A stretch of 64,000 nucleotides of DNA from Barthelona sp. PCE. Lineage: Eukaryota. Location of the stretch: contig JAUFOR010000005.1 of NCBI GenBank assembly GCA_040285745.1, positions 682,001 to 746,000 on the forward strand. Reading direction: 5' to 3'. The notes below the pieces were generated by a model. It was not told the DNA's origin. It saw only the letters and a program-made list of their open reading frames with translations, and made no database searches. Of this stretch, positions 1 to 39,297 are shown one piece after another (positions within the stretch are counted from its first letter, which is position 1; each line of letters starts with the position of its first letter). The position numbers and the translations under genes are program-made.

Positions 1-3000
1 CGTAAATTGCGTTTCTGATGCGGTCGATGTCCAGCATATCATCAACAATAAACTCGACGTGCATATTATACAGAGAAGATGCATCGATTAACTTACAGAC
101 GAGCCACAGACGCTGCTGTGCGAATGAGAGCTCGTAAGAAGCCTTGTTGTGCTTCTCGAACGATGAAACTGAAGCACGATTCATTACAGAAGTCAGCGAA
201 CTGATGGACTGACTGAGAGTCTCCGGTGTCGGGTTGACAAAAATGTGACTCACCTTGATCTTTTGATTGAGCTCCTGTGAAAGGCGGGCAATTACCTGTG
301 TGGCCACAAGCGAGTGACCACCCAGATCGAAGAAACTATCGCGTATACCGACAGTGTCAACACCTAGTACCTCCTCAAAGACGCGACAGATAAGCTTCTC
401 GATCTCTGTCGTTGGTTCAACATAATTCGACACAGAAACAGTCTGAGCAACAGAAGGCTTTGGCAAGGTCTTGCGGTTAACTTTACCTGATGTTGTCTTG
501 TTAAAGTGTGATACAACAATATAGCGAGCAGGAACCATGGTGAGTGGCAGCTTCGTAAGCATAAACTGACGTATGTTCTGAACGTACTCGGTGTTATGCA
601 GAACAACCAACTCATCTGATTCGGTCAAGTGAGAATACTCATGCTCGCGGGGAACAACATACGCACACAGATAGTTATCTCCCGACTTATCCTTAACAAC
701 AGTGATTAAACCAGTTGATACTTCAGGATGAAGAAGTAAAGCACTGGCTATCTCACCAAGCTCCATACGAAGACCATGAATCTTGACCATGAAGTCAGTT
801 CGGCCCTTATAGTGGATGAGACCCTCGTTGTCATATCGACCAAGATCGCCTGACATATACACATACTCATTTCGTTCTTCAGTGAGTGCAAATGTTCCGA
901 AACTTTTCTTAGTAAGATCAGGACGCTTCCAGTATCCGCTTGCAACGGCGGCACCACCGGTGTATATCTCACCGACAGCACCCTTTGGTGCGAGGTAGCC
1001 GTTCTGTACAATCCAGCAAGTGTAGTTATCAAAGCAATATCCGCATGGAACATAGGTCTCTCCCGGTTTTGTTTCGTAATATGTGGTCTCAAGACAGCAC
1101 TCCGTTGCACCGTATGTATTTACCAGCTTCGCGTTGGGGAACTTCTCGTAGAACAGGTCACGCACGTATGTAGTCAACGGTTCTCCACTGAGGAACACGT
1201 AACGCAGACCCTGGTACTTCTCCGCATCAATGGCATCAAGGAAGGCCTTAAGCATACTGGGCACAAAGTAACAAAGAGTGACATTGTGCTGTTCAAACTC
1301 TTCAAATATCTCAACCGGTTCACGGTGAGCATTGGGTTGTGTCATATGGAGAACAGCGCCACACAAGAGTGGCACGATATACTCCCATACACTCGGGTCA
1401 AACGTCAACGTTGTCTTTAGAGCAATGACGTCCGCAGCGGAAGCTTTTGTGTACTCCAACTGCCAAATCATACGGTTCATAACGGCATCGTTTGTTGTTG
1501 GGATACCTTTTGGCGTACCAGTCGAACCTGAAGTGAACACAATGTAACAGCGATCGTCGAACGAAACTGTCCAATCGAAGCTCACCTTCTGATCTAAATA
1601 ATCGCTTGTGGACACTAAATCCACGTCCAACACGTGGCAACCGGACTCGCCAATGATGTCGGGTAAACGATCCCTCAAGATATCGTCGTCCACAATCAGC
1701 ACCGACATGTCAACATCTTTAACTAAGAAATTGATACGGTCGGTTGGGAAAGACGGCTCCATGGGAACATAGAGAGCACCTAGCTTGAAACATGCCAGAA
1801 TAGCAAACATCATCTCTGGTCTACGCAGAATGCAAATACCCACTGCATCACCCTTTGTCACATTGTGCTCTAAAAGGTATGCACACATTGCGTCTGTCTC
1901 GGCAAACAGCTCGCGGTACGACCATGAACTTTCTCCGAACGTCAGTGCGCAATCATCGAGATGCTGGTTACCATAAGAGAAAATGTGCTCGAATATTGTT
2001 AGTTCAGGACGGGCAATTGGTTTTGGATTCAGACCGTAGCGCAACTCATCGAGCTCTGCAGGTGTGATACACTGGATCTGCTTCAGCTTGGTGTAAACAT
2101 CAGTTGAAATCAGTCTCTCAAGCATGTATGCGAAATTGTTCGCAAAACGTTTGATAGTATCAAGTGTGAACAACTCTGTTGCGTACTCAAACTCAAAGCG
2201 CAGGCCCTCGCTCTCCTTATAGGCTAGCAGGGACAAATCAAACTTTGACGAAGTTGTTTCGTATCGGAGCTGGTGTACCTCACACTCACTGAGTACAAGC
2301 GATCCTGTGTCCATTGTTATCATGTTGAAGAATGATTGGAACAAAGGGTTTCTGTTAGCTGATCTCTTTATCTGAAGAGTATCAACCAAAATATCAATGG
2401 GAAGGCTCTGGTGGTCAAATACCTTAACAAATCCATCACGCATAGCCTCAACGAATCCTAGGAATGATCCTTCAGCGTCATAAGAGGAAAGAACAGGAAC
2501 TGAGTTTACGAACAGACCAATAACTGACTCCAAATCGCTGAGCATACGGTTAGCAACTGGAACACCAACAATGACGTCCTTTTGGTTCGAGTAACGGTGA
2601 AGCATGTAAGAAAATGCTGAAAGAAGCAGAACAAACAAAGAGCAGTTGCATGACATTGCCATAGACTCCAGTTCTGCAGTGATGGTAGGATTTAGAACAA
2701 GAGAGTACTCGCTTCCAGTCCATTCCAGCACTTCTTTGCGGGGGTAGTCGGTTGAAAGATCAAGAACTGTGGTGCTTGCCTCTCCCAAGTAGTTTTTAAA
2801 GAACTCCAACGAGGATCTAAACTCAAACTCCTCGCGTTCCCATACAGCATACTGTGGGTAATCAATGGTCGTCTGCTTGACGGGTTTAGCGTTGTAAATT
2901 GCGCTGAGCTCCTCAAAAAATATTGACATTGACCAGCCATCACCAGCAATATGGTGAATACAGAGCCAAAAGTATGCGGCCTTCTCAGTTTTGATAAGTT

Positions 3001-6000
3001 GAGCACGAATAGGTAGCTCCTTAGCAAGATCAAAGCCTGTAGCAGTAAATGTAACCCATTCAGATGCTAGTTCTGACTCTGCCACAGTACGTTGGACGAA
3101 TATTTCAGCAGGGATATCAGAAACTGGTTTGATGTAGGCTATAAGCTCTTCGTTCACCAGCTTATAAACTGTACGGAGAGCGCTATGTCTTGAAACAACA
3201 CTTCGGATTGCGGCACTGAGCTTCTCAGCATTAAGAGCACCAGTGATACGGAATCCAAACGGCATAAGATAGAGCTCACTGGACTCGATCAAGCTGTCTA
3301 ATATCCAGAGACGCTTCTGGGCAGCAGAAGGATAGAATCGCTGGTTAACCGAAATCGCTGACAAATCGGGCATTGAAACAAGTGAACTACGACGGATAGA
3401 TCCGGCTATATGAGCCACGGTTGGCTTATCAAAAAGCGCAGACAGACTTAGTGCAGTCTGGAATTTGCGCTGGATCTCACTTCGCAATTGAACATATAGC
3501 AGCGAGTGACCGCCCAATTCGTCAAAACGATCGTGTATACCAATTGGATAAGTGTTAAGGATCTTACCAAAGATAGAACATAGCTCAGTCTCAAGATGAT
3601 CACGCGGTGGTACAACATCACGGTTCGTGACAACACATGATGGGGCCGGCAACTTCTTACGGTCAACCTTACCACCCGGTGCAAGCGGCATGCGTTCCAA
3701 ATCAATGAGCATTTGAGGCACCATAAATGCTGGTAAACGTTCCTCCATGAACTTTAGTACAGATGCCTGACTATATGCCTCTCCGTGAGCGGGAATAACG
3801 TATCCAATGATCAAACCATCAACAACCATGGCGCATGAAGTACTAACAGCGGGATGCAAGGTCAAAAGGTTCTCAATCTCACCCATTTCAATACGGTGAC
3901 CACGGATCTTTACCTGGTAATCACGTCTACCAATGAACTCCACAAATCCGTCTTCGGAAAAGCGAGCCATATCACCTGTACAGTACATCTTACCGTGTGG
4001 TGCGACTTCAACATTGGTCAGCGATGTGTACATATCACTGACAAATGTCTTTGCTGAAAGTTCGGGTCTCTTGTGATATTCGTGTGCGACACCAACACCT
4101 CCGACATACAGTATACCTGTAGCACCGGCGGGAAGAACACGTTTGTACTGATCAAGTACAAAACACGTACCGTTCGTGATTGGGCGTCCAATAGGAACGG
4201 TTCGTGTGTTAAAGTCCTGTGAAACGTCAAAGTATGTCGCATACGAAGTTGATTCGGTGGGACCATAAAGGTTAACAAGACGCTTGGGGCTATACTGACT
4301 TGAAAGTAGTGTAAGCGCAACGTTCCTGTTCATCGCTTCACCACCTGTTGACACACACTCCAAATCACTGAAGATATGTGGGTAATCACGTACGTATCTG
4401 TTGAAGAGCGCGGTTGTGAGGAAAAGATGAGTGACTTCGAACTTTTCGATACACATTGCAAACAGATCTCCGTCAAGGACCTCGTTCTTCGTGATGACAG
4501 CGCAAGTTCCTCCATTAATTAATGGAGCCCAGATCTCAAACACGTGTGCGTCGAATGAAATCGTTGAGCACTGCGCCTGGACCATACTGCTGAAGCATGG
4601 AACCTGAGCATTCTCACAAACCATACGGAGGACACCTGACTGTGGTAAGACGCAACCCTTGGCGCGACCTGTTGAACCGGATGTATATATCATGTAGCAC
4701 GGCAGCATTTTGTCAGCATTGCTGTTTACCACCGCGCAATAGTCAGACATCGCATCACATGAGGCAAAACCATCAATGCACATCAGAGGACAGTCTGTCC
4801 ATTCGAATACATCCAAATGTTGGTTCTCAACAAACAGCATCTGCGGTAGTGCATCATCAATCATGAAGCGCAAACGTGACTCTGGATACGTGGGGTCAAG
4901 CGGAAGATAACAGCAGCCTGCACGGAGAATACCCGTCAGAACACAAATGAGAAGAGGGCTTCGAGACATGGATACACCAATAACTGCACCTTGTTCAACA
5001 CCTGCGTCAACCAAAACACCCGCGATGCGGTTGGAGTAGTGCCACAGATCACCATATGTGAGCGTGTGTGTTGATGAGGTGATGGCAACTTTTGCCTTAT
5101 TATGCGAGTCGATAATGTCACAGATGTTAACACCAAAGTCGACCGGTGCGTGTGACTGGTTGAAAGAAAGCAGCTCATCGTAGAACTGTGGCGGTGTGAA
5201 AGAGACGTGACTCATGTTTGTGGCGGAAGATAGTGTCTCAAGCGACTGAGCAATCTGTTCAACAACCTGGAACGTTGAAGTTACAAGGCACTCATCCACC
5301 TTTGCTCTTAAGTAAGAAATATCAAATTGGATACCATCTTCGATGTCAACTGCAATTGTGAACGGGAACTGGGTAACACCCTGTGGCGACTCACACGTAA
5401 ACAACGATGAATCTCCGGCTGATGCGTTTTCAAAGACATACAAAACATCGAACATTGATGGGAAGGACGTGATTGCCTGCAGTTCTGCAAGAGATATCTG
5501 AGAGTGGGCGCCAGCCATCACACTTTTGTGCTGAACTGCATTAACAAAGTCACTGAAACTCTGCTTCAGATTGGTGTTAATACAGATGGGCACAGTTGTA
5601 ATGAAGAGGCCGAGCGCCGAATCCAGATATTCAACCTCCAGATCACGACCGGAATATGTAACACCAAAGCACACAGAATCGGTGTTAGAAAGATAGCCAA
5701 ATGCGAGCATACAGATAGACTGAACAACTGCGTTGACTGAAACACCAAATGAACGGGCAGTCTTCAATATACTGTTAACGCTGCTCTTTGGAAGCGCGTG
5801 TTTGGCAAAGCCAACCGTTTGATCAACTGATGAGGTGTACTTGAATGGAAGCTCCGAATACTCAAATCCAGACAGTTCTTCGCGCCAGTACTGCAGGTTA
5901 CCCTCCTTAACTGATTCAAGTTTTCTAAAGTAGCTTCCGAAGTCAAACAGCGTTGGCTGAAGCGTCTTCCTGTGAAGTAAAGTGGTGATGCTGGTGAGCA

Positions 6001-9000
6001 ACAGCTCAATACTCCATGCGTCCAACAGCACGTGGTGGTTCACAATAACCAAACGCGATACTGCACCACCTGGAACAACTGCGAATCTGATAGGATCAGT
6101 TGCCAAAACACTGAGTCCTTCGGAGAGCACAGCGAAAGCCTCACTCACAGATGTAAAGTGTGGAACACTGTCAATACCCGTAGATGTGGTTACGACAACA
6201 CACCCTTCCTCAGTCTCATTAACAAACGAGCGGAGGAGTGGGTGGTGCTGGACTATCTCGATGATGCACTGATCCAACATAGCAGGTGCAACATCAATGC
6301 TCCAAACGTTCTGCTCAACATACGCGTTTGTATCAGAGCTACGCTTAAAATGATAGTACATTCCTGTTTGCATGTCTGTTAATGGCATTATGTTCTCAAC
6401 GTGGTGTGCGACAGTGATAGCATCGAGATCAGCCTTGGTGACAATCTTACCAAAATCTTGGGGCACAAATAGACTCTCGTCCAGGGTGAAAGGGAGCTTG
6501 CACTGCTCGAACTCATCAACCATAGATGGGTCACAAGATATTACAAGCACGATATCACCATTCAAAACACCAGCTTCGACGACAACGGAACCCATCAGCT
6601 GGTTTGAAGCAGCAACAGCTCCGTCATCCTTCAGGTCATCAAGGGAATCAATGACACCAATGAAATTAAAGACGACAGAGTTTGTGATGGATAGCAGCTC
6701 CTCATCAGTCATACATGCAAGAGCATCATGCATCGGGGCTGAATGAATGATTTCCTTGACAGACCTGATGTCTGCGTCGCGGACAATAGCAGGACGGAGA
6801 GCCGTGAACCAACCAACCGTATCAGAACAGTCGATTGGAAGCAAAACTCGACCCATTGATTCGAGCAATATGGGGAACTCCTCACGTTTGAATGAATTTG
6901 CAAACATACACACAGCAAGCTGTTCATTTGAAACACGATGGCGGTCGAAAAACTCTCTCGCTTCACTACCGATCTTAAATACCATGTCAACTGTAACACT
7001 CCCTCCAGTAGTTGTTGTGGGAGCATCAAATATGTTACAGACGCTGATAAACTGCTCCATGGAGCGACGCACTGAAGGAGATACAAGCTGTGATGTGTGC
7101 TCACTGAACTGTGGAAATACATTTCCGGCAGCCATGAGCTCGTCACCAGCAAGAACTGTCTCCAAATCAGAAACAATGAGAGCCCAACTGACAATGTCAA
7201 CTGCCATATGGTGCACAGCAATCAACAGCTCTCGACCGATGCAGCGTACCGCAAGGACGGGACCATTGAGTGACACAGACTGACACACCTCCTCAACTGA
7301 AGCATCCGACTCAAAGAATGCAAAGTCGATGAGATCGGTAATACCGTAGCTTCCATTATTGTAAACCAAACGGAGCATATCATGCTTCTTGATTAATGCG
7401 GTGATAGCCTTCTTAACCAGACCTGCCGAGTAGTCCTTTGACAGCTCGACTGTTTGATATTGACAGAAATGGCTGGGCTTGTCTAGATTCAATACATTGA
7501 AATAACGCTGAACAGGAGAAAGCTCTACACGATCCCTGCTCTGTACATTAATGATCTTACTCTTCTGCTTGATTGGTGTCAAACGCTTTGCCATTGTGCA
7601 TAAAATGGGAGCTTCAAATACCTCAGGAACGCTAAGTGAGAAACCATTCTTTCGAATGAGACTGATGAGCTTAATACTAATAATGGAGTCACCACCAATC
7701 TTAAAGAAGTTGTCATTAATGGAGATATCACTTTGTGACACTGAAAGCACTTCACTCCACAGCTCAACCAATAACTGTTCTTCTTGAGAAGTTGGAAGTT
7801 CAACGAGTGACTTCTTCCTTTCAACAGTCGGCTTGGGCAGACGTTTGCGGTTCACCTTTCCGTTCGGTAAAAGAGGGAATTCGGGAACCTCAACGTAATG
7901 AGAAGGATGCATATAATATGGCAACCTTCCATCCAGAGTAACTGAAATCCGGACGCGGTTGAGCACACCAAGACAATAGGCGACTAACACGGTTTCTTTG
8001 CCGATTTTAACAGGCATAACGATACATCGCTCAATACCAACGTCGCTTTCAATGACACGCTCGACTTCACCGAGCTCGATACGGTTGCCGCGGATCTTGA
8101 CCTGGTGGTCGATGCGGCCGAGGTACTCGACGTTCCCGTCTGCGCGCCAGCGCACGAGGTCGCCCGTCTTGTACAGGCGGCCCGCGGCGAACGGGTTCGG
8201 CACGAAGCGTGCGCGCGTGAGGTCGGGAGCGTTGTAGTAGCCGCGAGCGAGCGCGATGCCACCGATGTGCAGCTCACCCGGAACGCCAATGGGGCACAGC
8301 TGCATCGCCTTGTTCAGCACGAGTAGCTGGTTGTTGGCAACTGGTATGCCGATCGGCGGGTTGCTGCGCATGCCAGGCGTGCACTCGTACCACGATGAGT
8401 CGATCGTTGTCTCGGTGGGACCATACAGGTTAAGCAAGCGGCAGTCATCGACCTTCTCGAAGAACTGGTCGCACATGACGAGCGGCAGCGCCTCACCGGA
8501 CTGAACGACGATGCGGAGGGTGGGCAGCTTGACGCTGAGCACATCGAGGAACGCGCCGAGCATGCTTGCGACGAAGTGCATGATGGTGACGCGCCTCTCG
8601 TTGACGAAGTCGGCGATCTCCCACGGGTTATTCTGCGCGCCCGGCTTGAGCAGGTGAAGCTCTGCGCCGAGGACGAATGGAACGAACAGCTCCCAGACGG
8701 AGACGTCGAACGAGTACGGCGTCTTCTGGATGAAGCGGTCGTCGGCGGTGTACGTGAGGTCGCGCATCCACAGCAGGCGGTTGACGGCGCTGCGGTGCTC
8801 GATCGCGACGCCCTTCGGCGTGCCCGTCGACCCCGACGTGTAGATGATGTACATGATATCGCTAGAATCAGGCTTCCACTGAGTCAACTCCATCACGTTG
8901 TTGTTCTTGAAAACACTGCTTTCCATATCAACAACATAAGCATTTGTCCACATTGTGAGCTGCTCCTTACCACAAAGTACAAGATCGCATCTTGCGTGAT

Positions 9001-12000
9001 CCACGCAGAATTTGAGTCGGTCAATGGGATAGGCTGGATCCAACGGCAGATAAGCGGATCCTAGCTTGAGAATCGCCCAAAGCGAGACCATAAGCTCCAA
9101 TGAGCGCTCAAAACAAACACCAATAACAGAACCTTTATCGACCTGATCCATTAGATGAGTGGCAAGAACACTAGAGGCGTTGTCAAGTTCGGTATACGAT
9201 AAAACTGCACCAGTATGATCAACCAGTGCTGTTTTTGAAGGGTTTCTCTTGACAGATGCTAACATCAGGTCCAAAACTGTACCGCCGATATCATGCTCAG
9301 GCATTGGCAGTTCGCCAACAGCTATCAAATCCGATGCCTCGTCATCACTCAACAAAGGGTGTGACATGACACCAACGTCCATATCAACAACAATACCGTC
9401 AATAAAGCGGGTAAACTGTTCAAGCAACGTGACTGCCTTAGCATCACTGAATAATTCGGTTGAGTACTCCCAAACCAATTCCATTTCATCAGAAAGATGA
9501 CGGACATGAAGTGTAAGATCAACCTTCGCAACATCCAATGCAACGTCCTCGTAAGAGACCTTCGCGTCTCCAAGTTCAAGCACTGACTCCTTTCCGGGGA
9601 GGTAGTTGAACAATACCTTAAAGATTGGATTGCCTTTCATAGAACGATCGACATCCAAAAAATCAACAATGCGTTCAAAACATGTGCTGTTCCTCAACAT
9701 CTTGTCAACATTTTCAACTGTTACTTTGCAGAAATTACGGAAACTTAAGTTCTCTGCCATACTGCTGAATAAAGGCAGGGTGTTAACATAGTATCCGATT
9801 GCCTCCAGGTGTTGTCCTGCACGGTTCAGATGTGTGACACCAACAACAGCATCTTCAGAAGCAGAAACTCGATGAACGAATGATGCAAATGATGCAAGCA
9901 AAATATCAGACTCAGATACCTTTAGAACTTGAGACATACGCTCAATAGCTGCACATGTCTCAGTTGAGAGTCTTGTGCGGATAGAACGACCATCGTATGT
10001 TGGTTTTTCAGGTCTGTTGAAGTCAAAATTCAAATCCAAATCCATATTCTCAAATCCGTCCAGGATGGTCCAATAGTCGGTGACTGGGTGGTCAAAAACA
10101 TTAGGGCGCGGGGGCACCTCAACGGGCACCGCTCCTCCTCTGTAAAGAGTGTTGAAAGCTTCAACGAAAAGGTCGCAGGCAAAACCATCAATTGCAATAT
10201 GATGGAATGAGAAGCATATCTTCTCATTTGGCACAACTGCACAGCGAAATACACATTTCTTGAGATCAAAGGGTTCATTCAGGAAATCTTTTTCAGAAAG
10301 ATTCGAGTCAATGCGGAAATCAAGCTGAAGAACTTCGCACTGTGTGATCTCTCCATCCTTCAAATAGTATCCTGTTCTGAGTGCTACGTATGTCCTAAAC
10401 AGCTCCTGCACGGTCGCTCTTACACGATCTGCGTCGAACCCGCCCTCAACATTAAACACAAGCGGTAAATTATATAGTGATGATGTAGGCTCCAGTGAAT
10501 GGAGGAAATATAGTGATTTTTGACCGTCAGAAACAGCTGTTGTATCTATTGAGGCAACGCTCATCTCCTGTTTATCAGTAATAAGACTAGCAAGACGGGT
10601 TACAGTGTTACACACCTTCATTTCCTGAATCGAAACGGTAGCTCGGCTGGAAATCTTGCTAATAACACGGATAAACTGCATGGAATTACCGCCCAAGAAT
10701 TCAAAAGCATCATCACGAGATATTTTAGTCGCATCGATATTGAGCACTGAGGCAAAGACTGAGGCAACAAAAACCTCCATCTCGTCAACTGGTGGAACAA
10801 TAGCGCGGGTGACCGTTTCATATTTCATAGAGTTCAACAACTTTCGATCAATCTTACCTGAATTAGATAGTGGAATCTCACTCAGCAATACATACTCATC
10901 TGGTATCATATAATACGGTAAGCTCTGCTTCAGAAGAGTGGAAAGCTCTGTCACAACGTCAGCAGCCGCATAAGATACAAAGAAGCAAACGAGCTTCTTA
11001 TCACGGACTACAACAGCGCAAGCCTTTGTGATACCAACGGCGTTAACTGCCGCCTCGACCTCGGTGAGCTCAATACGGTGTCCTCTGATCTTGATTTGAT
11101 TGTCGTTTCGTCCCAAGAACAACAACTCGCCCTTCACGATCGAGGCAACATCACCAGTTCGGTAATAGCGCACACCATCTATGTTGACAAAACGTTGAGC
11201 TGTGAGTTCTGGCTGGTTTATGTAACCAGAAGCCAATCCACGTCCCGCAATTACCAACTCACCTGCCGTGAACTCAGGTGCAAACACTCCGTCCTTAAGA
11301 ATACGAACCGATGTGCCCGGGAATGGTACACCGATGGGAACAGCCTCGCCGCAACCGATCAGCTTATTCGAGTGGAAGTATGTTGAATCAATTGTAGCTT
11401 CAGTCAGTCCATAAGTGTTGAACAGACGTGCTGATGGGAAAAATTCGGAAAATTCAATATACTCAACACATGACCAGAAGTCAGAACCGCACATTATGAC
11501 TTTAAGATCATTGTCAGGCATGTTAACCGTTGAAAGAGTACGAAGAACAGTTGGTACAAACTCACATATATTAATGTGCAAGTCACATAATGTGCGTGTC
11601 AATTCGGTGCTATCCAATAACACATCACGATCGCAGATATGAAGAACACCGCCTGAACACAATGCACGAACGAAGTCACCCATTGCGACATCAAACGAGA
11701 AACTTGCCATTTGAAGATGGTTCCATCCTTTTTCCAGTCCAAATACTGACTCCCATCCAGTGTACGCGTTTAAATATGCGCTATGTGGGATGGAAGCACC
11801 CTTGGGCTTACCTGTAGAGCCAGATGTGAAGATGACGTAGGCTATGTCGCTTGCTTGGACTGAAGGTAAAGTGTTATCAACTGTAGCAGAGAGAATTGCT
11901 TGAAAATTGATGCAACGTGCGCTACATTCAATTTCGGAGTCGGTTAACACAAATTCGCACTGTGCTGTCTTCAACATGTGCTCAATACGGTCTGTTGGCA

Positions 12001-15000
12001 ACGTCAGATCAATCGGGAGCACTGCGCTACCAGCCGCAAGGATTGCCAACCAGCTGACAATTGCGTTTGCCGAACGGCCCATGGCTATACCAACTACTGC
12101 CCTGTGTGGCAAAGCAGTAGCAATAGCCTCAGCCTTGGTCCACAACTGCGCATACGTTAGCGTGCTCTTTCCGTCGCTAACAGCGATTGTATCGTTTCTC
12201 GGAATGAGATCAAGCACAGTTTTTCCCTGTGTTACAACAGCAGGTGCACTAAGGTAAGCACAATCTGCATTTTCAAATACACTGTTGGTGAAATCTCCAC
12301 CAATGACTGAATTAACCTTCAGCTTAAATAAATCAACCAAGACATTTAAAAATTCTGCTGAATAGACGGAAGAATCAAAGGTAAATTTGAAATCGACGCA
12401 TCTATCTCGAACAAAACCTTCAACAACGAGACCAATAAAGGCTTCAGTTGGTGAGTGCTCAACGGGAATAATGCCTTCCAATATTGATACGTAACTCTCT
12501 GATGCAAAGTCAAACATAATTGATGGCAGTTCGTCAGAGAAAAGAGTTGAATACTCCACACCTGCGTTAAGTGCTGCAGAGCGGATGCTGTCATACACCT
12601 GCTTGGCCTGAATAACAAAATTGTCTGATTTTAAGACTGTAAGAGCAGAGGTATTAACAAAATTACCAAACATATCATCATAAGCTGTTGCTGGTGATAC
12701 CAATCTTGCATCCACGGGGATGGCAAAAGTTGCCGCACTGTTTGAGGAAACAAAACCGAGGACATCACCAAAACATGCAGCAAAGATGGAATACACGGAA
12801 AGCCCGTGGTCGTGACAAAGCTTGCGTGCTGAGTCAACAATAGGGCCAAAGGAGAAGCTAATTTCACGCGATGTACTCTCCTTATCGTAGGAAACAATGG
12901 ACTTACCGGGTACGAAGGAAGGCATCTCTACTGAATCAAACTGTGATACAAAATCGCCTTTCGGAACAGAAAGAGATTGTATGAAAGGTGCTGTGTCAAT
13001 AACTCGGACTGTACCACCTGTCAGAGCTTCCTCCAATGATCTGGAGAACAAGTCAATTGAATAGCCATCGAACACCAGATGGTGCGCAGCAAAAACGACA
13101 TCTGTCTGCAGAACAATACACTTGTAACAACATTCCGTTGTGTTAAACACATTATTTTGCAGTAAAGAAATGCATTCTTCTAACTCAATATCAGCAGGAT
13201 AGACAGCCGTGTCATCAAAAGATTGTCTGACCAACAGATTTCCATCATCATCCATGTCGAATACACTGGTCAAAACATGAGTGCAATGGACGACATGTCT
13301 GAAGGCGTTGACAAGCTCTTCCTGTGAGTAACCACGCCCTGCAAAGTCGTATGAAATAACAACATTATATCCTGTTGATGAGAATTTTGAGTTCTGATAC
13401 ATTTGTTTGAGGGCTATACTATCGACAGGAACCCACTGCACACCTGTAGCTGGGGCCTTTGTAGCGAATGCGCCAGTATCTACGGTTGGATCGCTGACGA
13501 TAAGATTAGCAATAGCGAGTGGTGTCTGGTGTTCAAACACATCAGCAACCGTAATGCTGCAATGCAAATCCCTGTTAAGCGCTGCGACGAACCGGGCTGC
13601 ATTCAATGAATGACCACCCACAAGTGTGAACCTGCTTGAAAACGAGCACGGGGCACCAACAATCTTCGACATGATCGTCTTAACGGTCATGGCAACGGCT
13701 GGATTGGAAACATCAGACAGATCCACGTCCTCCTCTACGATTACTGGGAGAGGAAGACTGTTGCGATCAACCTTGCCTGAACCGGGTAAAAGCGGAAACG
13801 CAGACACTATCTCAATGAGAGGTGGAACCATGTATGACGGGAGTTGCTTCTCCATGAACTCCGGGAGTGTGCCCGGGTCAACATCTCCAATTACGTAGCC
13901 GACCAAAACAGGCTCAGCAAAAACGTCACGGCGCAGAACGACGACTGCTTGTCTCACTGATGGATGGTCGAGCATAACAGCTTCAACCTCGTGAAGATGG
14001 ATACGGACACCGCGGACCTTCACTTGGAAGTCACGACGACCCTTATAAAAAATGGTATCATTCTTCAGCTCGCACAAATCACCAGTTTCATATGAATACC
14101 AGCCTGGCATCGCTGTGTATGGCATGAACCTTTGCTGCAGCTCATCGGATAAGTATGGTGAAGAAATGTACTGGGTGGACACACCTAGGCCGTTGGCGAT
14201 TAGTTCGCCCTCAGGTGTAATGGTGACGTCTGTGTTGTACAGAGGTAATCCAATAGGCATGAAGTCAAACACAGTGTCCTTGGGAACAGTGTAGTACGTG
14301 ACGTTGGCAGACACCTCAGATGCACCATACAAGTTGACCAGGGTCGTGTGACCCCACTTCGAGTAATACTTCTTGGTCAGCGCACCTGTTAGTGCCTCAC
14401 CGGACGTGTAAACCAGCCGCAGAGGAGGAACTTGATCAACCTTCAACAACTCGTTGAGCAGAGAAGGAACAGCGACAAGACGCGTGATTTTGTATTTGCA
14501 AATAATCTTGACAAACTCCATAGGGTTCGTCATCGTCTCTGCACTAATGATGACAAGAGGGTTTCCGTTAAGCAATGGGCAGAAAATCTCCCACCAATGA
14601 TCGCCAAACGACAACGCAGTCTTTGAGCAGCAGACTTCGTCACGGGCGAGCGGATACTCAACGTTCAAAAAATTTATCAGGTTCACAGCTCCCTTGTGAG
14701 AGCCAACTACACCCTTTGGGCGTGAGACTCCACTGGCACTTGACGTCGAACCACTTGTGTATACGACATACATACCCATATCCCCTGAGTATGCATTGTC
14801 GGGCACGTCAACCGGTCTCGGTGTGAAGTTTTTAATGCGTTCATAGAACCCTGTAATGGAAATTGATGGAGCTGACCATACTGACTTGTCAAGAGTAATA
14901 ACTACATCAGGACCTGCGTTCTCCACTATCCAGTTGAGCCTGGATGCTGGGAGGTTTGGCTCCAGCGGCAAGTAGGTCTTCCCCATCTTCATAACTGCTA

Positions 15001-15253
15001 ATAATAATGGGATTGCAAGTTGATGATCACGTTTAATATTGAGACCAACAATTCCCGACCCAAATTCAAGCCCGCTACTCATCATGTAGTGAACAAGACG
15101 ATTTGACATTTCTTCAACCTCCATGAAGGTTTGAAATGTCCCATCTGCTTGATAAATGGCAATATGTTCAGGGCATTGCGATGATATGGAGTACCACCAC
15201 GGAACTATATGTTCGTACGGTAGATCCACGCGAATGCCATTCAAAATATCCAT
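1..15253 (-). CDS. Multimodular nonribosomal peptide synthetase, 3'-partial (at least 5084 aa; A-T-C-A-T-C-A-T-E-C-A-T-C-A-T-C...)
   Basis: Manual translation from ATG 15253 (MDILNGIRVDLPYEHIVPWW...). All five carrier-protein Ser codons (13607-9, 10682-4, 7685-7, 3503-5, 311-3) and the terminal LSFAQQRLW...YN segment are in one frame. The ORF track lists no closed ORF in this frame, consistent with no stop before the window edge. Five A domains (TSGST..PKG, GxxE, [TS]GD, GRxD, GK motifs), four complete HHxxxD C domains plus the start of a fifth, one E domain. Confidence 0.97.
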   Translation of the reverse strand, partial: MDILNGIRVDLPYEHIVPWWYSISSQCPEHIAIYQADGTFQTFMEVEEMSNRLVHYMMSSGLEFGSGIVGLNIKRDHQLAIPLLLAVMKMGKTYLPLEPNLPASRLNWIVENAGPDVVITLDKSVWSAPSISITGFYERIKNFTPRPVDVPDNAYSGDMGMYVVYTSGSTSSASGVSRPKGVVGSHKGAVNLINFLNVEYPLARDEVCCSKTALSFGDHWWEIFCPLLNGNPLVIISAETMTNPMEFVKIICKYKITRLVAVPSLLNELLKVDQVPPLRLVYTSGEALTGALTKKYYSKWGHTTLVNLYGASEVSANVTYYTVPKDTVFDFMPIGLPLYNTDVTITPEGELIANGLGVSTQYISSPYLSDELQQRFMPYTAMPGWYSYETGDLCELKNDTIFYKGRRDFQVKVRGVRIHLHEVEAVMLDHPSVRQAVVVLRRDVFAEPVLVGYVIGDVDPGTLPEFMEKQLPSYMVPPLIEIVSAFPLLPGSGKVDRNSLPLPVIVEEDVDLSDVSNPAVAMTVKTIMSKIVGAPCSFSSRFTLVGGHSLNAARFVAALNRDLHCSITVADVFEHQTPLAIANLIVSDPTVDTGAFATKAPATGVQWVPVDSIALKQMYQNSKFSSTGYNVVISYDFAGRGYSQEELVNAFRHVVHCTHVLTSVFDMDDDGNLLVRQSFDDTAVYPADIELEECISLLQNNVFNTTECCYKCIVLQTDVVFAAHHLVFDGYSIDLFSRSLEEALTGGTVRVIDTAPFIQSLSVPKGDFVSQFDSVEMPSFVPGKSIVSYDKESTSREISFSFGPIVDSARKLCHDHGLSVYSIFAACFGDVLGFVSSNSAATFAIPVDARLVSPATAYDDMFGNFVNTSALTVLKSDNFVIQAKQVYDSIRSAALNAGVEYSTLFSDELPSIMFDFASESYVSILEGIIPVEHSPTEAFIGLVVEGFVRDRCVDFKFTFDSSVYSAEFLNVLVDLFKLKVNSVIGGDFTNSVFENADCAYLSAPAVVTQGKTVLDLIPRNDTIAVSDGKSTLTYAQLWTKAEAIATALPHRAVVGIAMGRSANAIVSWLAILAAGSAVLPIDLTLPTDRIEHMLKTAQCEFVLTDSEIECSARCINFQAILSATVDNTLPSVQASDIAYVIFTSGSTGKPKGASIPHSAYLNAYTGWESVFGLEKGWNHLQMASFSFDVAMGDFVRALCSGGVLHICDRDVLLDSTELTRTLCDLHINICEFVPTVLRTLSTVNMPDNDLKVIMCGSDFWSCVEYIEFSEFFPSARLFNTYGLTEATIDSTYFHSNKLIGCGEAVPIGVPFPGTSVRILKDGVFAPEFTAGELVIAGRGLASGYINQPELTAQRFVNIDGVRYYRTGDVASIVKGELLFLGRNDNQIKIRGHRIELTEVEAAVNAVGITKACAVVVRDKKLVCFFVSYAAADVVTELSTLLKQSLPYYMIPDEYVLLSEIPLSNSGKIDRKLLNSMKYETVTRAIVPPVDEMEVFVASVFASVLNIDATKISRDDAFEFLGGNSMQFIRVISKISSRATVSIQEMKVCNTVTRLASLITDKQEMSVASIDTTAVSDGQKSLYFLHSLEPTSSLYNLPLVFNVEGGFDADRVRATVQELFRTYVALRTGYYLKDGEITQCEVLQLDFRIDSNLSEKDFLNEPFDLKKCVFRCAVVPNEKICFSFHHIAIDGFACDLFVEAFNTLYRGGAVPVEVPPRPNVFDHPVTDYWTILDGFENMDLDLNFDFNRPEKPTYDGRSIRTRLSTETCAAIERMSQVLKVSESDILLASFASFVHRVSASEDAVVGVTHLNRAGQHLEAIGYYVNTLPLFSSMAENLSFRNFCKVTVENVDKMLRNSTCFERIVDFLDVDRSMKGNPIFKVLFNYLPGKESVLELGDAKVSYEDVALDVAKVDLTLHVRHLSDEMELVWEYSTELFSDAKAVTLLEQFTRFIDGIVVDMDVGVMSHPLLSDDEASDLIAVGELPMPEHDIGGTVLDLMLASVKRNPSKTALVDHTGAVLSYTELDNASSVLATHLMDQVDKGSVIGVCFERSLELMVSLWAILKLGSAYLPLDPAYPIDRLKFCVDHARCDLVLCGKEQLTMWTNAYVVDMESSVFKNNNVMELTQWKPDSSDIMYIIYTSGSTGTPKGVAIEHRSAVNRLLWMRDLTYTADDRFIQKTPYSFDVSVWELFVPFVLGAELHLLKPGAQNNPWEIADFVNERRVTIMHFVASMLGAFLDVLSVKLPTLRIVVQSGEALPLVMCDQFFEKVDDCRLLNLYGPTETTIDSSWYECTPGMRSNPPIGIPVANNQLLVLNKAMQLCPIGVPGELHIGGIALARGYYNAPDLTRARFVPNPFAAGRLYKTGDLVRWRADGNVEYLGRIDHQVKIRGNRIELGEVERVIESDVGIERCIVMPVKIGKETVLVAYCLGVLNRVRISVTLDGRLPYYMHPSHYVEVPEFPLLPNGKVNRKRLPKPTVERKKSLVELPTSQEEQLLVELWSEVLSVSQSDISINDNFFKIGGDSIISIKLISLIRKNGFSLSVPEVFEAPILCTMAKRLTPIKQKSKIINVQSRDRVELSPVQRYFNVLNLDKPSHFCQYQTVELSKDYSAGLVKKAITALIKKHDMLRLVYNNGSYGITDLIDFAFFESDASVEEVCQSVSLNGPVLAVRCIGRELLIAVHHMAVDIVSWALIVSDLETVLAGDELMAAGNVFPQFSEHTSQLVSPSVRRSMEQFISVCNIFDAPTTTTGGSVTVDMVFKIGSEAREFFDRHRVSNEQLAVCMFANSFKREEFPILLESMGRVLLPIDCSDTVGWFTALRPAIVRDADIRSVKEIIHSAPMHDALACMTDEELLSITNSVVFNFIGVIDSLDDLKDDGAVAASNQLMGSVVVEAGVLNGDIVLVISCDPSMVDEFEQCKLPFTLDESLFVPQDFGKIVTKADLDAITVAHHVENIMPLTDMQTGMYYHFKRSSDTNAYVEQNVWSIDVAPAMLDQCIIEIVQHHPLLRSFVNETEEGCVVVTTSTGIDSVPHFTSVSEAFAVLSEGLSVLATDPIRFAVVPGGAVSRLVIVNHHVLLDAWSIELLLTSITTLLHRKTLQPTLFDFGSYFRKLESVKEGNLQYWREELSGFEYSELPFKYTSSVDQTVGFAKHALPKSSVNSILKTARSFGVSVNAVVQSICMLAFGYLSNTDSVCFGVTYSGRDLEVEYLDSALGLFITTVPICINTNLKQSFSDFVNAVQHKSVMAGAHSQISLAELQAITSFPSMFDVLYVFENASAGDSSLFTCESPQGVTQFPFTIAVDIEDGIQFDISYLRAKVDECLVTSTFQVVEQIAQSLETLSSATNMSHVSFTPPQFYDELLSFNQSHAPVDFGVNICDIIDSHNKAKVAITSSTHTLTYGDLWHYSNRIAGVLVDAGVEQGAVIGVSMSRSPLLICVLTGILRAGCCYLPLDPTYPESRLRFMIDDALPQMLFVENQHLDVFEWTDCPLMCIDGFASCDAMSDYCAVVNSNADKMLPCYMIYTSGSTGRAKGCVLPQSGVLRMVCENAQVPCFSSMVQAQCSTISFDAHVFEIWAPLINGGTCAVITKNEVLDGDLFAMCIEKFEVTHLFLTTALFNRYVRDYPHIFSDLECVSTGGEAMNRNVALTLLSSQYSPKRLVNLYGPTESTSYATYFDVSQDFNTRTVPIGRPITNGTCFVLDQYKRVLPAGATGILYVGGVGVAHEYHKRPELSAKTFVSDMYTSLTNVEVAPHGKMYCTGDMARFSEDGFVEFIGRRDYQVKIRGHRIEMGEIENLLTLHPAVSTSCAMVVDGLIIGYVIPAHGEAYSQASVLKFMEERLPAFMVPQMLIDLERMPLAPGGKVDRKKLPAPSCVVTNRDVVPPRDHLETELCSIFGKILNTYPIGIHDRFDELGGHSLLYVQLRSEIQRKFQTALSLSALFDKPTVAHIAGSIRRSSLVSMPDLSAISVNQRFYPSAAQKRLWILDSLIESSELYLMPFGFRITGALNAEKLSAAIRSVVSRHSALRTVYKLVNEELIAYIKPVSDIPAEIFVQRTVAESELASEWVTFTATGFDLAKELPIRAQLIKTEKAAYFWLCIHHIAGDGWSMSIFFEELSAIYNAKPVKQTTIDYPQYAVWEREEFEFRSSLEFFKNYLGEASTTVLDLSTDYPRKEVLEWTGSEYSLVLNPTITAELESMAMSCNCSLFVLLLSAFSYMLHRYSNQKDVIVGVPVANRMLSDLESVIGLFVNSVPVLSSYDAEGSFLGFVEAMRDGFVKVFDHQSLPIDILVDTLQIKRSANRNPLFQSFFNMITMDTGSLVLSECEVHQLRYETTSSKFDLSLLAYKESEGLRFEFEYATELFTLDTIKRFANNFAYMLERLISTDVYTKLKQIQCITPAELDELRYGLNPKPIARPELTIFEHIFSYGNQHLDDCALTFGESSWSYRELFAETDAMCAYLLEHNVTKGDAVGICILRRPEMMFAILACFKLGALYVPMEPSFPTDRINFLVKDVDMSVLIVDDDILRDRLPDIIGESGCHVLDVDLVSTSDYLDQKVSFDWTVSFDDRCYIVFTSGSTGTPKGIPTTNDAVMNRMIWQLEYTKASAADVIALKTTLTFDPSVWEYIVPLLCGAVLHMTQPNAHREPVEIFEEFEQHNVTLCYFVPSMLKAFLDAIDAEKYQGLRYVFLSGEPLTTYVRDLFYEKFPNAKLVNTYGATECCLETTYYETKPGETYVPCGYCFDNYTCWIVQNGYLAPKGAVGEIYTGGAAVASGYWKRPDLTKKSFGTFALTEERNEYVYMSGDLGRYDNEGLIHYKGRTDFMVKIHGLRMELGEIASALLLHPEVSTGLITVVKDKSGDNYLCAYVVPREHEYSHLTESDELVVLHNTEYVQNIRQFMLTKLPLTMVPARYIVVSHFNKTTSGKVNRKTLPKPSVAQTVSVSNYVEPTTEIEKLICRVFEEVLGVDTVGIRDSFFDLGGHSLVATQVIARLSQELNQKIKVSHIFVNPTPETLSQSISSLTSVMNRASVSSFEKHNKASYELSFAQQRLWLVCKLIDASSLYNMHVEFIVDDMLDIDRIRNAIY
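200..3350 (-). other. NRPS module 5: LCL-type C-A5-T5
   Basis: C SAAQKRLW, HSALRT, HHIAGDGWS; A5 FTSGSTGTPKG, TFDPSVWE, CYFVPSML, FLSGEP, NTYGATECCLET; T5 FFDLGGHSL. A sixth module's C domain begins at ~135 (LSFAQQRLW). Confidence 0.9.
3400..6420 (-). other. NRPS module 4: DCL-type C-A4-T4 (aliphatic amino acid-like A domain)
   Basis: C PLTDMQTGMYYH, YVEQ, HHVLLDAWS, YSGR..GLFITTVP; A4 YTSGSTGRAKG, SFDAHVFEIWAPLING, LFLTTALFN, TGGEA, NLYGPTESTSYAT; T4 LGGHSL. Confidence 0.9.
6480..10545 (-). other. NRPS module 3: C-A3-T3-E (Ser-like A domain plus epimerization domain)
   Basis: C HHIAIDG (~10185-10205); A3 KTPYSFDVSVWE, MHFVAS, QSGEAL, NLYGPTETTIDS; T3 FFKIGGDSI; E LSPVQRYF, HDMLR, HHMAVDIVSW, LESMGR, TVGWFT, FNFIG. 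Confidence 0.9.
10570..13450 (-). other. NRPS module 2: C-A2-T2 (A2 Orn/Dab-like)
   Basis: C motif HHLVFDG (~13064-13084); A2 FTSGSTGKPKG, SFDVAMGDF, CEFVP, IMCGSD, NTYGLTEATIDS; T2 LGGNSM. Confidence 0.9.
13500..15253 (-). other. NRPS module 1: initiation A1-T1 (beta-amino-acid/Ebony-like A domain)
   Basis: YTSGSTSSASGVSRPKG, KTALSFGDHWWEIFCPLLNG, ITRLVAVPSLL, YTSGEAL, NLYGASEVSANVT, PGSGKVDR; T1 motif VGGHSL. No N-terminal C domain. Boundaries approximate. Confidence 0.9.
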
Positions 15254-15707
15254 ATCAATGCTGTGCAAATGGTTGTAAAAAAGGAGTAAAATTATAAACA
15301 ACTGACATAAGCGTTTGTTAGGTTTTTCTTGTGAATAGTGATTTAATAGATGTGCTAGTGTTAAATTTGCCAAACACAAATACTGAGTATGAGTGCAAGA
15401 TGATTCTATTAATGGGCAGGGTTAATTTGATCAATTCCACATATATGAGAAACTTTTCATTCGTTTGTAAGGATAGTGATATAATATTCATGTTCAAAAT
15501 GAGGTATAAATATTGCTAAACAGACTATATACATATTAATGATTATATCTTGTTCTTCACTTTAATATGGGTTTTAAAACCCGTGAGTTCGCTCAAACGA
15601 ATAACCATACTCACATAGACACCATAAATGTCGAATGATCTCCCATGCTACAGTGCTTTGAAAAGCTTTTTTTCACTTCTTGCAGTGTATTAGACTAATT
15701 TAGTATA

Positions 15708-16199
15708 ATGAGATGGGATCAATTACTTCGACGGTACTCGTGTTCGCGTTTTCAGGGCTTAAAACTGGCTGTTTTTGATCCAACTTCAGAGATCTTCAAT
15801 CGTTTGGACTTAAATAATGTAGAATCATCTTTAACGCACGAGAAGTACATAGACACTGGACTGGGGCTGCGTTGTAGGCATTTTATTGAAGTACCAGATG
15901 CTAATGCATTGATTGGTATTGATGGGCTTCTTTTTACTCTTTTGCATGATGATTATGAGGCTCAACGGATTAATTTACATAGAATGATGCATGAATGCGC
16001 ATTTGAAACGTGCGTTTCGATTCTTTACATTGATGATTCTGATGGAACGCTGTCTAGATGTGAAATTTTGAAATTATTAGATGCTACAGAGATCGTGAAC
16101 GACGGGACAGGAAAAGTGTTTTTTGTGTCTCCCAACCCAAGATCAACAGGAGGTCTTGATGATGCACTGATATGGTTGTCAGAAAACAAATTTAAATAA
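15708..16199 (+). CDS. Degenerate Arf-family-like small protein without recognisable GTPase motifs (163 aa)
   Basis: ATG-to-TAA ORF; Arf-like C-terminus (EILKLLD...VFFVS...GGLDDALIWLSE) and DGLLF strand, but no GxxxxGK(S/T), DxxG or NKxD. Confidence 0.55.
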   Translation: MRWDQLLRRYSCSRFQGLKLAVFDPTSEIFNRLDLNNVESSLTHEKYIDTGLGLRCRHFIEVPDANALIGIDGLLFTLLHDDYEAQRINLHRMMHECAFETCVSILYIDDSDGTLSRCEILKLLDATEIVNDGTGKVFFVSPNPRSTGGLDDALIWLSENKFK

Positions 16200-16213: not shown

Positions 16214-16774
16214 TTACTTGTTTCTTCTAACAGCGTCACTGAGCCAGTTGAATCCATCTTCAAGTCCGTATCCGTTCTCTGTTACGGAACAGAGCTGAAC
16301 ATGAATAGGACGCTCATGGATACGGCTGTTGAGATCAAGAGCAGTAACGATATCCGACACGTTGAGCTGGGGAGACATGTCAAACTTGTTGCCGAGGACA
16401 AGCACCGGCTTGTTTTGAAGTGCAGGGTGCTTAAGAACAGACTGAAGCTCTTGACGAGAAACATCATAACGATCAGTGTCAGCAACATCAATCATCCACA
16501 CCAAAGCATCACATGCAGGTAGAAAATCGGACCAGACCTCTCTGATGGATTCGTGACCACCTACATCATAAATAAGACAGCGTAAACCACCGCTCAATTC
16601 AACGTGCTCGGAACTTACTTGTGCAGTTGGGGGAAGCTCCCTCAGACGACCAGTTAACAGATAGTATAAGAGAGTGCTCTTTCCGGCGCAATCAAGACCT
16701 AAAAATAGGATATTGGAATTTCTAAGCCTTTTGAAAATGCGGAAAAGCCTTTTGAAGAATGACAAGAGACCCAT
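16214..16774 (-). CDS. ARF/SAR family small GTPase (Sar1-like G3 His, Gly2 N-terminus)
   Basis: GLDCAGKST, DVGGH, GNKFD, LCSV, GFNWLS; N-terminal MGLLSFFKRLF amphipathic helix. Confidence 0.93.
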   Translation of the reverse strand: MGLLSFFKRLFRIFKRLRNSNILFLGLDCAGKSTLLYYLLTGRLRELPPTAQVSSEHVELSGGLRCLIYDVGGHESIREVWSDFLPACDALVWMIDVADTDRYDVSRQELQSVLKHPALQNKPVLVLGNKFDMSPQLNVSDIVTALDLNSRIHERPIHVQLCSVTENGYGLEDGFNWLSDAVRRNK

Positions 16775-17203: not shown

Positions 17204-20200
17204 TTACACTTGGTTTGATGCCATTGGCTGCATTTGAAGATTCTCACCGGGTGTGTCGGTAGAATAAACGCTGAAGCTAGGGTCCATTTCGGGCTTACTC
17301 TCATTCTTATCCAAATAAAATGCAATAAACACGAAAATAGAAACAAATATAACAATCAAAATAATACCCCCATAAGAGGAGTCCTTTTCAACGTCTGCTG
17401 GTGGCTCATACACACCTGTTTGGAGATTGCAAGGTTTATCTGAGTAACCACAGATATCAATGAGCTCGACCTCTGTTGTAATCGTGCTGCTCCCGTTCTT
17501 GATCAAAACAAACACCTTGTCATCAATGATCTTAGAAGTTCCAATCACATCACCCGCCTCGAATACATCATATGAAGTTGATGTGGGCAGCGTGACGACA
17601 TCATTGCTGATAGGGTCATAAGAAAACAGAACGTTCCTATTTAGCGTCGACTGAGTAATACCAATGAATCGAGAGCCAATCTGACGTAGAGAGCCACGCT
17701 TTGTCGTTGCCAGATTGACATCAGTGACAACTTCCTCAATAACGTAACCGGTCTCAATGTCAACGTGTCTTGCTGTTGTGCCTTTGAAAAGCAAAATCTC
17801 ATCATTGTACACAGCAGAAGATGATTCATGATCGATGGAGTCATTGAGCGCAACAACAGTAGGTTCAATAGTGTCACCATCAAAACCAAACAAATAAGTG
17901 GTCTCCTCGCTGTTTGCATCGGTGTGGTTACCAATAAGATATGCGTTCGTCTCGTTGCTTGCGATGACCACGTTCTTGATCTCGGTATGTGGGAAGAGAT
18001 CGACACCAACATCAACAAACGAAATAGACTCGGTGTTCCAATTGATATCAATGACTCGATACTCGAACTCGCAGTTCCTTACAAAATAAAATATACGAGT
18101 CTTATTAACACCATCGATGTAGTCGAAACGAGAAGCCATGCAAGGAAGCATCGCTTCAAGATCGGCATCTGAAGTGAGGGAAACACCAACAAAGTCCTGT
18201 GCCTCCTGAATATACTTCCTTACATATGGCTCAGTTTTAGCAAGTACAAAAGCCTCATCTCCATGGCTGAAAACAGTAATAGGCTCAGTGGACTCGACGG
18301 GTGGCTTCATGTTAAGGGCGTCCTCCTTCACGATCTCAGCATCGCGAACACTAACGGAAGCGCCCGCCATTACAATGTCAAGTGAACCATCTTCATTGAT
18401 CTCAATGAAACCACCGTCGACAGAAATGGACGGGTCACGGTTGTAAGATGAGTTAGCACATGTGAACGGGGACAAAGAGCATGAATGCTTGACCACCATA
18501 TCATCATCAGCTTCTCCCATGCACACAATGGTGACACCATCAGCTGTCAGTTTCAGTGAGAGGCCAATGCACGATTCGTCCAATATCTCTTCAGTGTACG
18601 TCTCCGTTTCTTTGTTGAAGAACCCCAACGTGGTGTTAACCGTATTGTTCTTTACGTGAGCAAATACGAATCTGTCGCCAAGCTCAGCGATAGCACATTC
18701 ATCACCGCATGCTAACACGTCAGTTGCTGCATATGAAACAACGTTACCATCTGTGACAAGTTTGACGATATTTGAAGATAGTTCTGCACCTATGTGACCT
18801 CCGATAGCGTATATTACTGGGGAGTCAGCGTTGTGAAGCACACCAATAGCGCCATCTGGCATTGAAGGGCCAGCACCACCGTTGGAGTTCACATTGAAAA
18901 CTGTCCATGTATTTGTTTCGGGATCGTACGCCATCAGAACATCTGAAATGGTATAAATAATCAGTTGATCCGGATTGGCGACAGGCAGTTGCACATCTGA
19001 AGATGATACATGAGTTGGCCTTTCTCCAAAGAAAGTGAATATGTTACCAGATGATGTTAAATACACACTATTTCCATCAATAGAAATTCTGGACACAGGT
19101 TTAGAAGGTAATTTGTTAATTTCAGTCACTTTAGCTGTTTTTTCAGCTTCCTTCTTCGTGCATTTACCTGCACTCATCTCATAGCCGCTGTCGCAGACGC
19201 AGCTGGTGGAACCAAGAACACAAGTCGAATGTGCTGGGCATTTGGGGCACATTTCCTTATCACATGCAGAACCAGACCAGCCTTCGTTACATTGACACAG
19301 TCCGGGACTTACACATGTTCCTTGAGAGTTACAATCGTTGCTACAAACAGGAGATTCGCAGTTGTCGCCGCTCCATCCATCGATGCATTGGTCACAGTTG
19401 TCACCACTGAATCTTCCGATACAACTCAGCATGTTTGGACCGACACAGCTCATACGCTGATCATCGTATGAAGTTCCACAGTCGAACTCACTACAGTCGG
19501 CACCTTTGTAACCATTTTTGCAAGCACACACTTCCTCGGTTGTGCAATTTTGTCTAGTGTTACAGAGTCCGCCACATGGTAAATAACAAGCTGTCTTGTT
19601 ATCATACCAACGCTCAAACCATTCACAGCTAACACAAGCATCACCGTTGGGAGACACCCAACCGTCATTGCACTCAGCTGGATTGATAGTGCCATTTCCG
19701 AGACACTCATGACCAGGTGTGCATGCTACACAAGCACTACCATCAGTGGAGTACCAGCCTTCTGAGCATTTAACAGGGTTAATAGTACCATTTCCGAGAC
19801 ACTCGTGACCTTGTGTACATGCTACACAAGCACTGCCATCAGTAGAGTACCAACCTTCTAAGCATTTAACAGGGTTAATAGTGCCATTTCCAAGACACTC
19901 ATGGCCAACTGTACATGCTACACAAGCACTACCATCAGTAGAGTACCAGCCTTCTGAGCATTTAACAGGGTTAATAGTGCCATTTCCGAGACACTCATGA
20001 CCAGGTGTGCATGCTACACAAGCACTACCATCAGTGGAGTACCAGCCTTCTGAGCATTTAACAGGGTTAATAGTACCATTTCCGAGACACTCGTGACCTT
20101 GTGTACATGCTACACAAGCACTGCCATCAGTAGAGTACCAACCTTCTGAGCATTTAACAGGGTTAATAGTTCCATTTCCGAGACACTCGTGACCTTGTGT

Positions 20201-39001: not shown

Positions 39002-39297
39002 CGTAAATAAAATATAAACAAACGGTGCTCCTCAGAAAAGAAAGAGAAATACAAAAACAGTTTTAGTTTTCATCATTGTCTGTTCTTGTACTACTATGAA
39101 GTTAATTAGAGAATTTTCCACAATAAATAGTGATATAACGAGAAATCGTGAACCTGATGAATCAATCATGCTATATTGCCTTGAACAACACAAGAAATGT
39201 CTTTTCACGTACACTCACAATGAAATTTAACACTAATCTCAACACAAAAAAAGAAACTACGCTAGTGCAAAAAATACCCTTTTTCTTTTATTCTTTC

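Follow-up and report, generated by a model that had tools for sequence, protein, structure and literature searches.

The left end of a 64,000-nucleotide stretch of Barthelona sp. PCE DNA (contig JAUFOR010000005.1, positions 682,001–746,000, forward strand; hereafter the window) carries a large nonribosomal peptide synthetase (NRPS) gene. We read this gene as host-encoded and of old bacterial origin, with the substrate-binding core of its third module probably replaced at a later time by recombination. A more specific version, which we consider plausible though not quite probable, is that an NRPS of at least eight modules with an epimerase was reprogrammed after its domestication by a foreign 840-bp serine-pocket cassette reaching from motif A3 to motif A8.

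Architecture of the NRPS gene

The gene lies in a minus-strand frame of at least 5084 codons that opens with an ATG and is free of stop codons and of N until the left end of the window cuts its 3' part. Pfam searches with five pieces spanning the ORF return AMP-binding and PP-binding stretches five times each and Condensation-family stretches six times, the sixth being partial. Together with a motif scan, these give the domain order A-T-C-A-T-C-A-T-E-C-A-T-C-A-T-C(partial), with the repeated C-A-T modules in one polypeptide that define a multimodular, colinear NRPS. The features are as follows.

2..15253, minus: NRPS ORF, at least 5084 aa, 3' end beyond the window (ORF, Pfam, motif scan)
13754..15178, minus: A1, initiating adenylation domain, code GDWVYSLANK, VD-code clade (boundaries approximate)
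13499..13684, minus: T1, GGHSL (Pfam, motif scan)
12224..13456, minus: C1, strongly diverged, LCL side, HHLVFDG intact (boundaries approximate)
10829..12196, minus: A2, code DVGEMGTIDK, Orn-code clade (boundaries approximate)
10580..10768, minus: T2, GGNSM (Pfam, motif scan)
9326..10546, minus: C2, LCL (Pfam, class HMMs, tree)
7829..9271, minus: A3, code DVWHVSLIDK, presumably Ser, mosaic domain (boundaries approximate)
8072..8911, minus: GC3-rich patch, aa 2115–2394, candidate A-core swap (GC3 step)
7607..7774, minus: T3, GGDSI (Pfam, motif scan)
6419..7546, minus: epimerization domain (class assignment, tree; boundaries approximate)
5252..6397, minus: C3, DCL (Pfam, class HMMs, tree)
3644..5101, minus: A4, code DAFFSGLSYK, Val/Ile/Leu-type clade (boundaries approximate)
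3401..3586, minus: T4, GGHSL (Pfam, motif scan)
2045..3337, minus: C4, LCL (Pfam, class HMMs, tree)
458..1981, minus: A5, code DPWYFSTLEK, derived from Ser group (boundaries approximate)
209..394, minus: T5, GGHSL (Pfam, motif scan)
2..142, minus: start of C5, cut by the window end (Pfam)
15254..15707, no strand: AT-rich intergenic region of 454 bp, head-to-head with an Arf-fold eukaryotic gene

The gene retains the catalytic motifs of a colinear NRPS (A3, A8, A10 lysine, carrier serine, and HHxxxD). The motif scan finds five A3 motifs, five A10 lysines, the A7 motif in all five A domains, the carrier serines of T1–T5, and five HHxxxD motifs, the sixth condensation-family domain being cut ahead of its own. 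The initial annotation had described an uninterrupted, intronless frame, five complete modules plus the start of a sixth in this order, and intact carrier serines, A10 lysines, and HHxxxD motifs, all of which is borne out.

The condensation-family domains were subtyped against 1606 domains from 261 long NRPSs, which had been labeled according to their neighboring domains. T3 is followed by an epimerization (E) domain: 17 of its 20 best matches are labeled E and the remaining three are C-terminal, it is placed in the E clade of a 63-row C/E tree (SH-aLRT 99), and it retains the catalytic His motif as well as the Glu that aligns with PvdL EGHGRE. The C domain that follows is of the DCL class (class HMMs, 195 vs 128 bits), C2 and C4 are LCL, and the strongly diverged C1 falls weakly on the LCL side, with the 63-row tree agreeing in each case. 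T3 carries GGDSI, the carrier type paired with E and DCL domains; the available text of PMC10212144 reports this motif beside DCL domains.

Modules 1 and 2 are short, at 971 and 996 aa vs a median of 1056 aa over 1010 bacterial modules. The 261 long NRPS matches are all at most 7994 aa, although lengths up to 8897 aa were allowed, and this NRPS is absent among them; the full protein is therefore estimated to exceed 8000 aa. We think it fairly likely that the collection of matches stops near 8000 aa and that the full NRPS is longer.

A probable host-encoded gene of old bacterial origin

The eukaryotic housekeeping neighbors that the initial annotation had named (Arf, GPN1, FAM91A1, Cse1, BEACH) are confirmed by a Pfam scan of 20 of the 24 other ORFs of at least 150 aa in the window. 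The scanned ORFs include Arf-family, GPN-type ATP_bind_1, FAM91, L7Ae, kinase, glutamine synthetase III, RING, WD40, Cse1, and BEACH-FYVE proteins, and no phosphopantetheinyl transferase, thioesterase, tailoring, or transporter families appear among these 20 ORFs. By a hand sum, ORFs fill some 90% of the window, which marks this part of the genome as compact and poor in introns. Of eight neighbor proteins looked up, seven could be placed, each on a 766,953-bp contig. The leader of the NRPS gene is T-rich, like those of host genes, and no Shine-Dalgarno sequence is seen in it by eye. It is most likely that the NRPS is real and host-encoded, a conclusion in which we place high confidence.

Matches to the NRPS are 25–30% identical to it among the 120 long matches listed, and those with a species name are all bacterial. 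No close relative was found, the best among the matches listed having 30% identity across the gene and 56% across the best-matching core, and near-identity to a characterized bacterial NRPS, which the initial annotation had named as evidence against its own reading, is not seen among them. In an 81-row A-core tree, A1 belongs to a clade of VD-code domains (SH-aLRT 99), A2 to one of Orn-code domains (98), and A4 to one of Val/Ile/Leu domains (96), while A3 and A5 fall among Ser domains (82). The C and E domains sit on long branches (1.0–2.55 in the 63-row tree). The A, C, and E domains nest within bacterial subtype clades, the pattern expected of lateral transfer, and the combination of C and E subtypes follows the bacterial scheme. 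This shows a bacterial ancestry; the A and C/E trees were built with no NRPS known to be fungal or otherwise eukaryotic, and they speak to ancestry and not to the immediate donor.

Outside the patch described below, codon use of the NRPS is within the host range (median distance 0.091 for 16 chunks vs 0.099 for 38 host chunks), which is weak evidence because four of seven bacterial controls also lie within that range. An old, ameliorated bacterial acquisition, in line with the old horizontal acquisition that the initial annotation had proposed, fits best, since the domains lie in bacterial clades on long branches, close relatives are lacking among the matches listed, and codons outside the patch are host-like. 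Of two scans of IMG/VR for a giant-virus or phage source, which find close relatives only, one gave a 30-residue match at 43% and the other gave none. On the reading that we favor, a colinear bacterial NRPS long ago passed into a eukaryote with a compact, intron-poor genome and has since drifted and partly shrunk.

A GC3-rich patch in the module 3 adenylation core

The earlier statement that most of the gene looks compositionally like its neighbors holds outside positions 8072–8911, a GC3-rich exception that it did not mention. Across hundred-codon bins of the NRPS, GC3 is 30–59% in 48 of 51 and 81–88% in three adjacent ones. The maximum-likelihood block covers aa 2115–2394 (8911–8072, 840 bp), with a GC3 of 0.87 vs 0.43 outside (2ΔlnL 211), and at both edges GC3 passes from 0.43 to 0.92 within 60 codons. 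The edges, at aa 2114–2136 and 2389–2399, take in or abut motifs A3 (2135) and A8 (2379–2389), and the right edge lies a few residues past what we take to be the A8 hinge. The patch holds nine of the ten pocket residues of the A3 domain, and both breakpoints lie inside Acore with the C-A linker and the Asub-T interface kept, as in an Acore swap.

Host genes likewise carry GC3-rich stretches, and the best block is weaker in all 11 tested (GC3 at most 0.69, 2ΔlnL at most 85). The patch has a codon-use distance of 0.27, where none of 38 host chunks exceeds 0.14. Such foreign codon use would also be expected of an assembly error in which the patch, or the whole NRPS, derived from a collapsed paralog or a co-cultured bacterium, was wrongly joined to the eukaryotic contig. 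We consider such an artefact very unlikely. Frame and domain order continue across both patch edges with no gain or loss, and the mosaic A3 domain yields an AlphaFold model with a pLDDT of 91 whose best fold matches are Txo2 and EntF. The remainder of the gene sits on long branches and resembles none of the bacterial NRPSs listed, and it has a host-like leader, host-range codon use, and a 454-bp spacer in common with the Arf-fold gene.

The patch falls on the stretch of the domain where conservation is highest, as would be the case if codon selection at a function-critical core had raised GC3 with no recombination. This explanation is largely refuted, and we give it next to no weight: GC3 is lower at conserved than at variable sites of the other four cores (115/298 vs 355/716, p = 0.0015), whereas in A3 conserved and variable sites both stand at 0.88–0.89 and conserved sites just outside the patch at 0.40. 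We also rejected an identification of the patch as GRINS; its skews are weak (GC −0.09, TA −0.01) against a threshold that is reportedly about 0.15, and no repeat of it occurs in window positions 1–16000.

At the protein level, divergence within the NRPS is lowest in the patch. With replicate references drawn from the long-match set rather than chosen by A3, the A3 core lies 1.0–1.36 from the nearest bacterial domain vs 1.71–2.69 for the other four cores in all five replicates, and the flanks of the A3 domain, at 2.36–3.06 from bacteria, resemble other flanks. The protein signal shrinks when references are matched for substrate class: the A3 core then has a ratio of 0.95, its two flanks have ratios of 0.75 and 0.72, and the other cores lie at 0.70–0.89.

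The search for a donor returned none: the best identity is 56% among a further 120 matches listed and 55% among 41 GTDB loci, the viral scans gave nothing close, a metagenome scan gave 11 loci at 34–43% over the domain and a 40-residue piece at 83%, and the best ten places listed in a plasmid blastn of the patch are about 65% identical. P0386, the top match among those 120, is an ordinary two-A-domain fragment. In make-up (GC2 0.41, FYMINK 0.247) the patch is unlike all 18 bacterial cores with a GC3 of at least 0.80, from the 27 of 41 loci examined. The spacing of A3 to A4 is 36 in the patch vs 37 in 290 of 292 bacterial Ser domains, and its one-residue deletion is absent from all 292 measured; core length does not separate it from bacteria, as 17 of the 292 are as short. 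Codon choice at G/C-ending codons did not single out a donor type.

These properties bear on a further alternative, repeated gene conversion with a serine core in the unseen 3' part or in a paralog, by which GC3 would have been raised in place with no import. GC-biased conversion can raise GC3 in paralogs, the composition of the patch is eukaryote-like, and in its choice of G/C-ending codons it is about as close to the GC-rich stretches of the host (lnL −94.3) as to the best-fitting bacterial loci (−91.3 to −92.0). The A3 and A5 cores also group weakly (SH-aLRT 88), a grouping that has no resolution under a mixture model. Conversion should not, however, halve the distance to bacteria, and positions 1–16000 hold no second, near-identical copy, the A cores being only 27–40% identical to each other. 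We regard conversion without import as rather unlikely, though the most serious of the alternatives.

Taken as a whole, the evidence makes it very probable that recombination, whether by import or by conversion, produced the patch, and possible sources are a GC3-rich protist, an unsampled bacterium, or conversion with an unseen paralog. Under the import reading that we favor, the conserved A3 and A8 motifs would have served as sites of homologous recombination, through which module 3 exchanged its substrate-binding core for the serine core of a GC3-rich donor. Native sequence would remain in the C-A linker, in the A-T-E interface, and in most of Asub.

Predicted monomers and product

Pocket codes were extracted from all five A domains (listed above), and the same procedure applied to P0125 yields the tyrocidine codes; a literature search found no match to the code strings. 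The beta-Ala, Orn, Ser, and Val labels are substrates that we assume for these codes, and the VD-code clade that holds A1 is presumably beta-Ala-like. The code of A2 clades with the tyrocidine-type Orn code, pointing to Orn or Dab. The predicted order is a beta-Ala-like residue, Orn/Dab, D-Ser, an aliphatic residue, and an unassigned one; the monomers guessed in the initial annotation thus agree with the extracted codes and the A-core tree, under the same assumed labels. In A1 the Asp is shifted from position 235 to 236, and a beta-amino acid substrate fits because Asp235, described in the available text of PMC11355689 as the alpha-amino anchor in adenylation domains, is absent.

In operation, T1 would be loaded with the beta-Ala-like starter and Orn or Dab added. 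Ser would be turned to D-Ser by the E domain and accepted by the DCL domain, followed by the aliphatic residue, a small residue of unassigned kind (A5), and further monomers. A phosphopantetheinyl transferase encoded elsewhere would be needed. A secreted defence or microbe-shaping peptide is the most likely product, though in our estimate an even call; a siderophore is less likely, and some other function equally so. As separate observations, A1 has a six-residue insertion in its A3 phosphate-binding loop (window ~14740–14760, minus strand; NRPS aa 168–178) and a ten-residue deletion before A6.

Comparison with known systems

The enzyme resembles bacterial colinear (type A) NRPSs (tyrocidine synthetase-type, Txo2, EntF, PvdL) in its A-T initiation, its C-A-T modules, its T(GGDSI)-E-DCL arrangement, and its recognizable pocket codes. 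It differs from them in lying among eukaryotic genes with no cluster partners seen, in its identity of at most 30% among the matches listed, and in its short modules 1 and 2. According to the available text of Baunach et al. 2021 (PMC8097286), recombination in bacterial NRPSs mainly replaces part of Acore and keeps the C-A linker and Asub, the same partial replacement, with the linker and the Asub-T interface kept, that we propose here. Unlike those swaps, the proposed one is set in a eukaryotic nuclear context and is read from a step in composition, no parental or donor sequence being available. In the literature searched, where coverage of subscription papers was thin, we found no natural A-core swap in a eukaryote, no description of this NRPS gene, and, judging from listings, no compositional A-core patch in a protist NRPS.

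NRPSs in protist genomes have a precedent: Anaeramoeba genomes hold several laterally acquired NRPSs, proposed to shape colonizing bacteria, to which the main text (bioRxiv 10.1101/2023.03.03.530753) gives one sentence and of which Table S9 may describe a similar enzyme. The available part of a second Anaeramoeba paper assigns NRPSs to a bacterial symbiont. Bacteria-like NRPSs occur in other non-fungal eukaryotes as well, namely algae, rotifers, and other animals (PMC10794256, PMC11258130, PMC10531068; available portions). Most of the algal candidates have LCL domains only or are incomplete, and the 12 long clustered ones are without exception NRPS-PKS hybrids (PMC10794256); the one recent rotifer acquisition is GC-rich across the whole gene (PMC11258130), where here only the patch is. 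GRINS (PMC8256042, in part) are likewise compositionally recoded stretches inside assembly-line genes, from which the patch differs by its weak skews and by having no repeat copy in positions 1–16000; the accessible parts of PMC13322982 and PMC13126170 add nothing on protists. Laterally acquired NRPSs are already reported from an anaerobic protist; the patch is the most unusual feature here.

If our reading is correct, a streamlined protist would join the organisms whose peptide assembly lines make D-amino acids, its product would be a peptide not yet described, and NRPS diversification by Acore swapping would operate in eukaryotes too, even where the sequences involved are very distant from each other. 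The cassette would then be a case of sub-gene lateral transfer acting as natural assembly-line engineering in a eukaryotic nucleus and, if it came from another protist, would imply unseen protist NRPS families. For NRPS engineering, the patch may offer a natural, apparently tolerated exchange unit.

Other genes in the window

The nearest gene to the NRPS, 454 bp upstream and head-to-head with it, is a 163-aa ORF (15708–16199, plus strand) with no Pfam match and an Arf/Sar fold (TM up to 0.77). It lies tail-to-tail with an Arf-family gene at 16214–16774 (minus) and by eye lacks a P-loop, so it is perhaps a pseudo-GTPase. Eight ORFs have no Pfam family at E 0.001 (27585–28136, 29450–31543, 37241–39001, 39157–40065, 42668–44092, 45996–48149, 53741–54802, and 62707–63999). 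The type III glutamine synthetase gene (40412–42478, plus) may be a second old bacterial acquisition; the other 119 matches listed are 40–44% identical, and the named ones are bacterial. In a beta-propeller and kinase gene (32695–36873, plus) the last 475 codons have a GC3 of 0.69 vs 0.43, a milder step than that of the NRPS patch. Two further genes are long single frames: an intronless 2327-aa protein with EGF-like repeats, probably a surface protein (17204–24187, minus), and a 2572-aa protein combining Laminin G-like, BEACH, and FYVE domains (54965–62683, plus).
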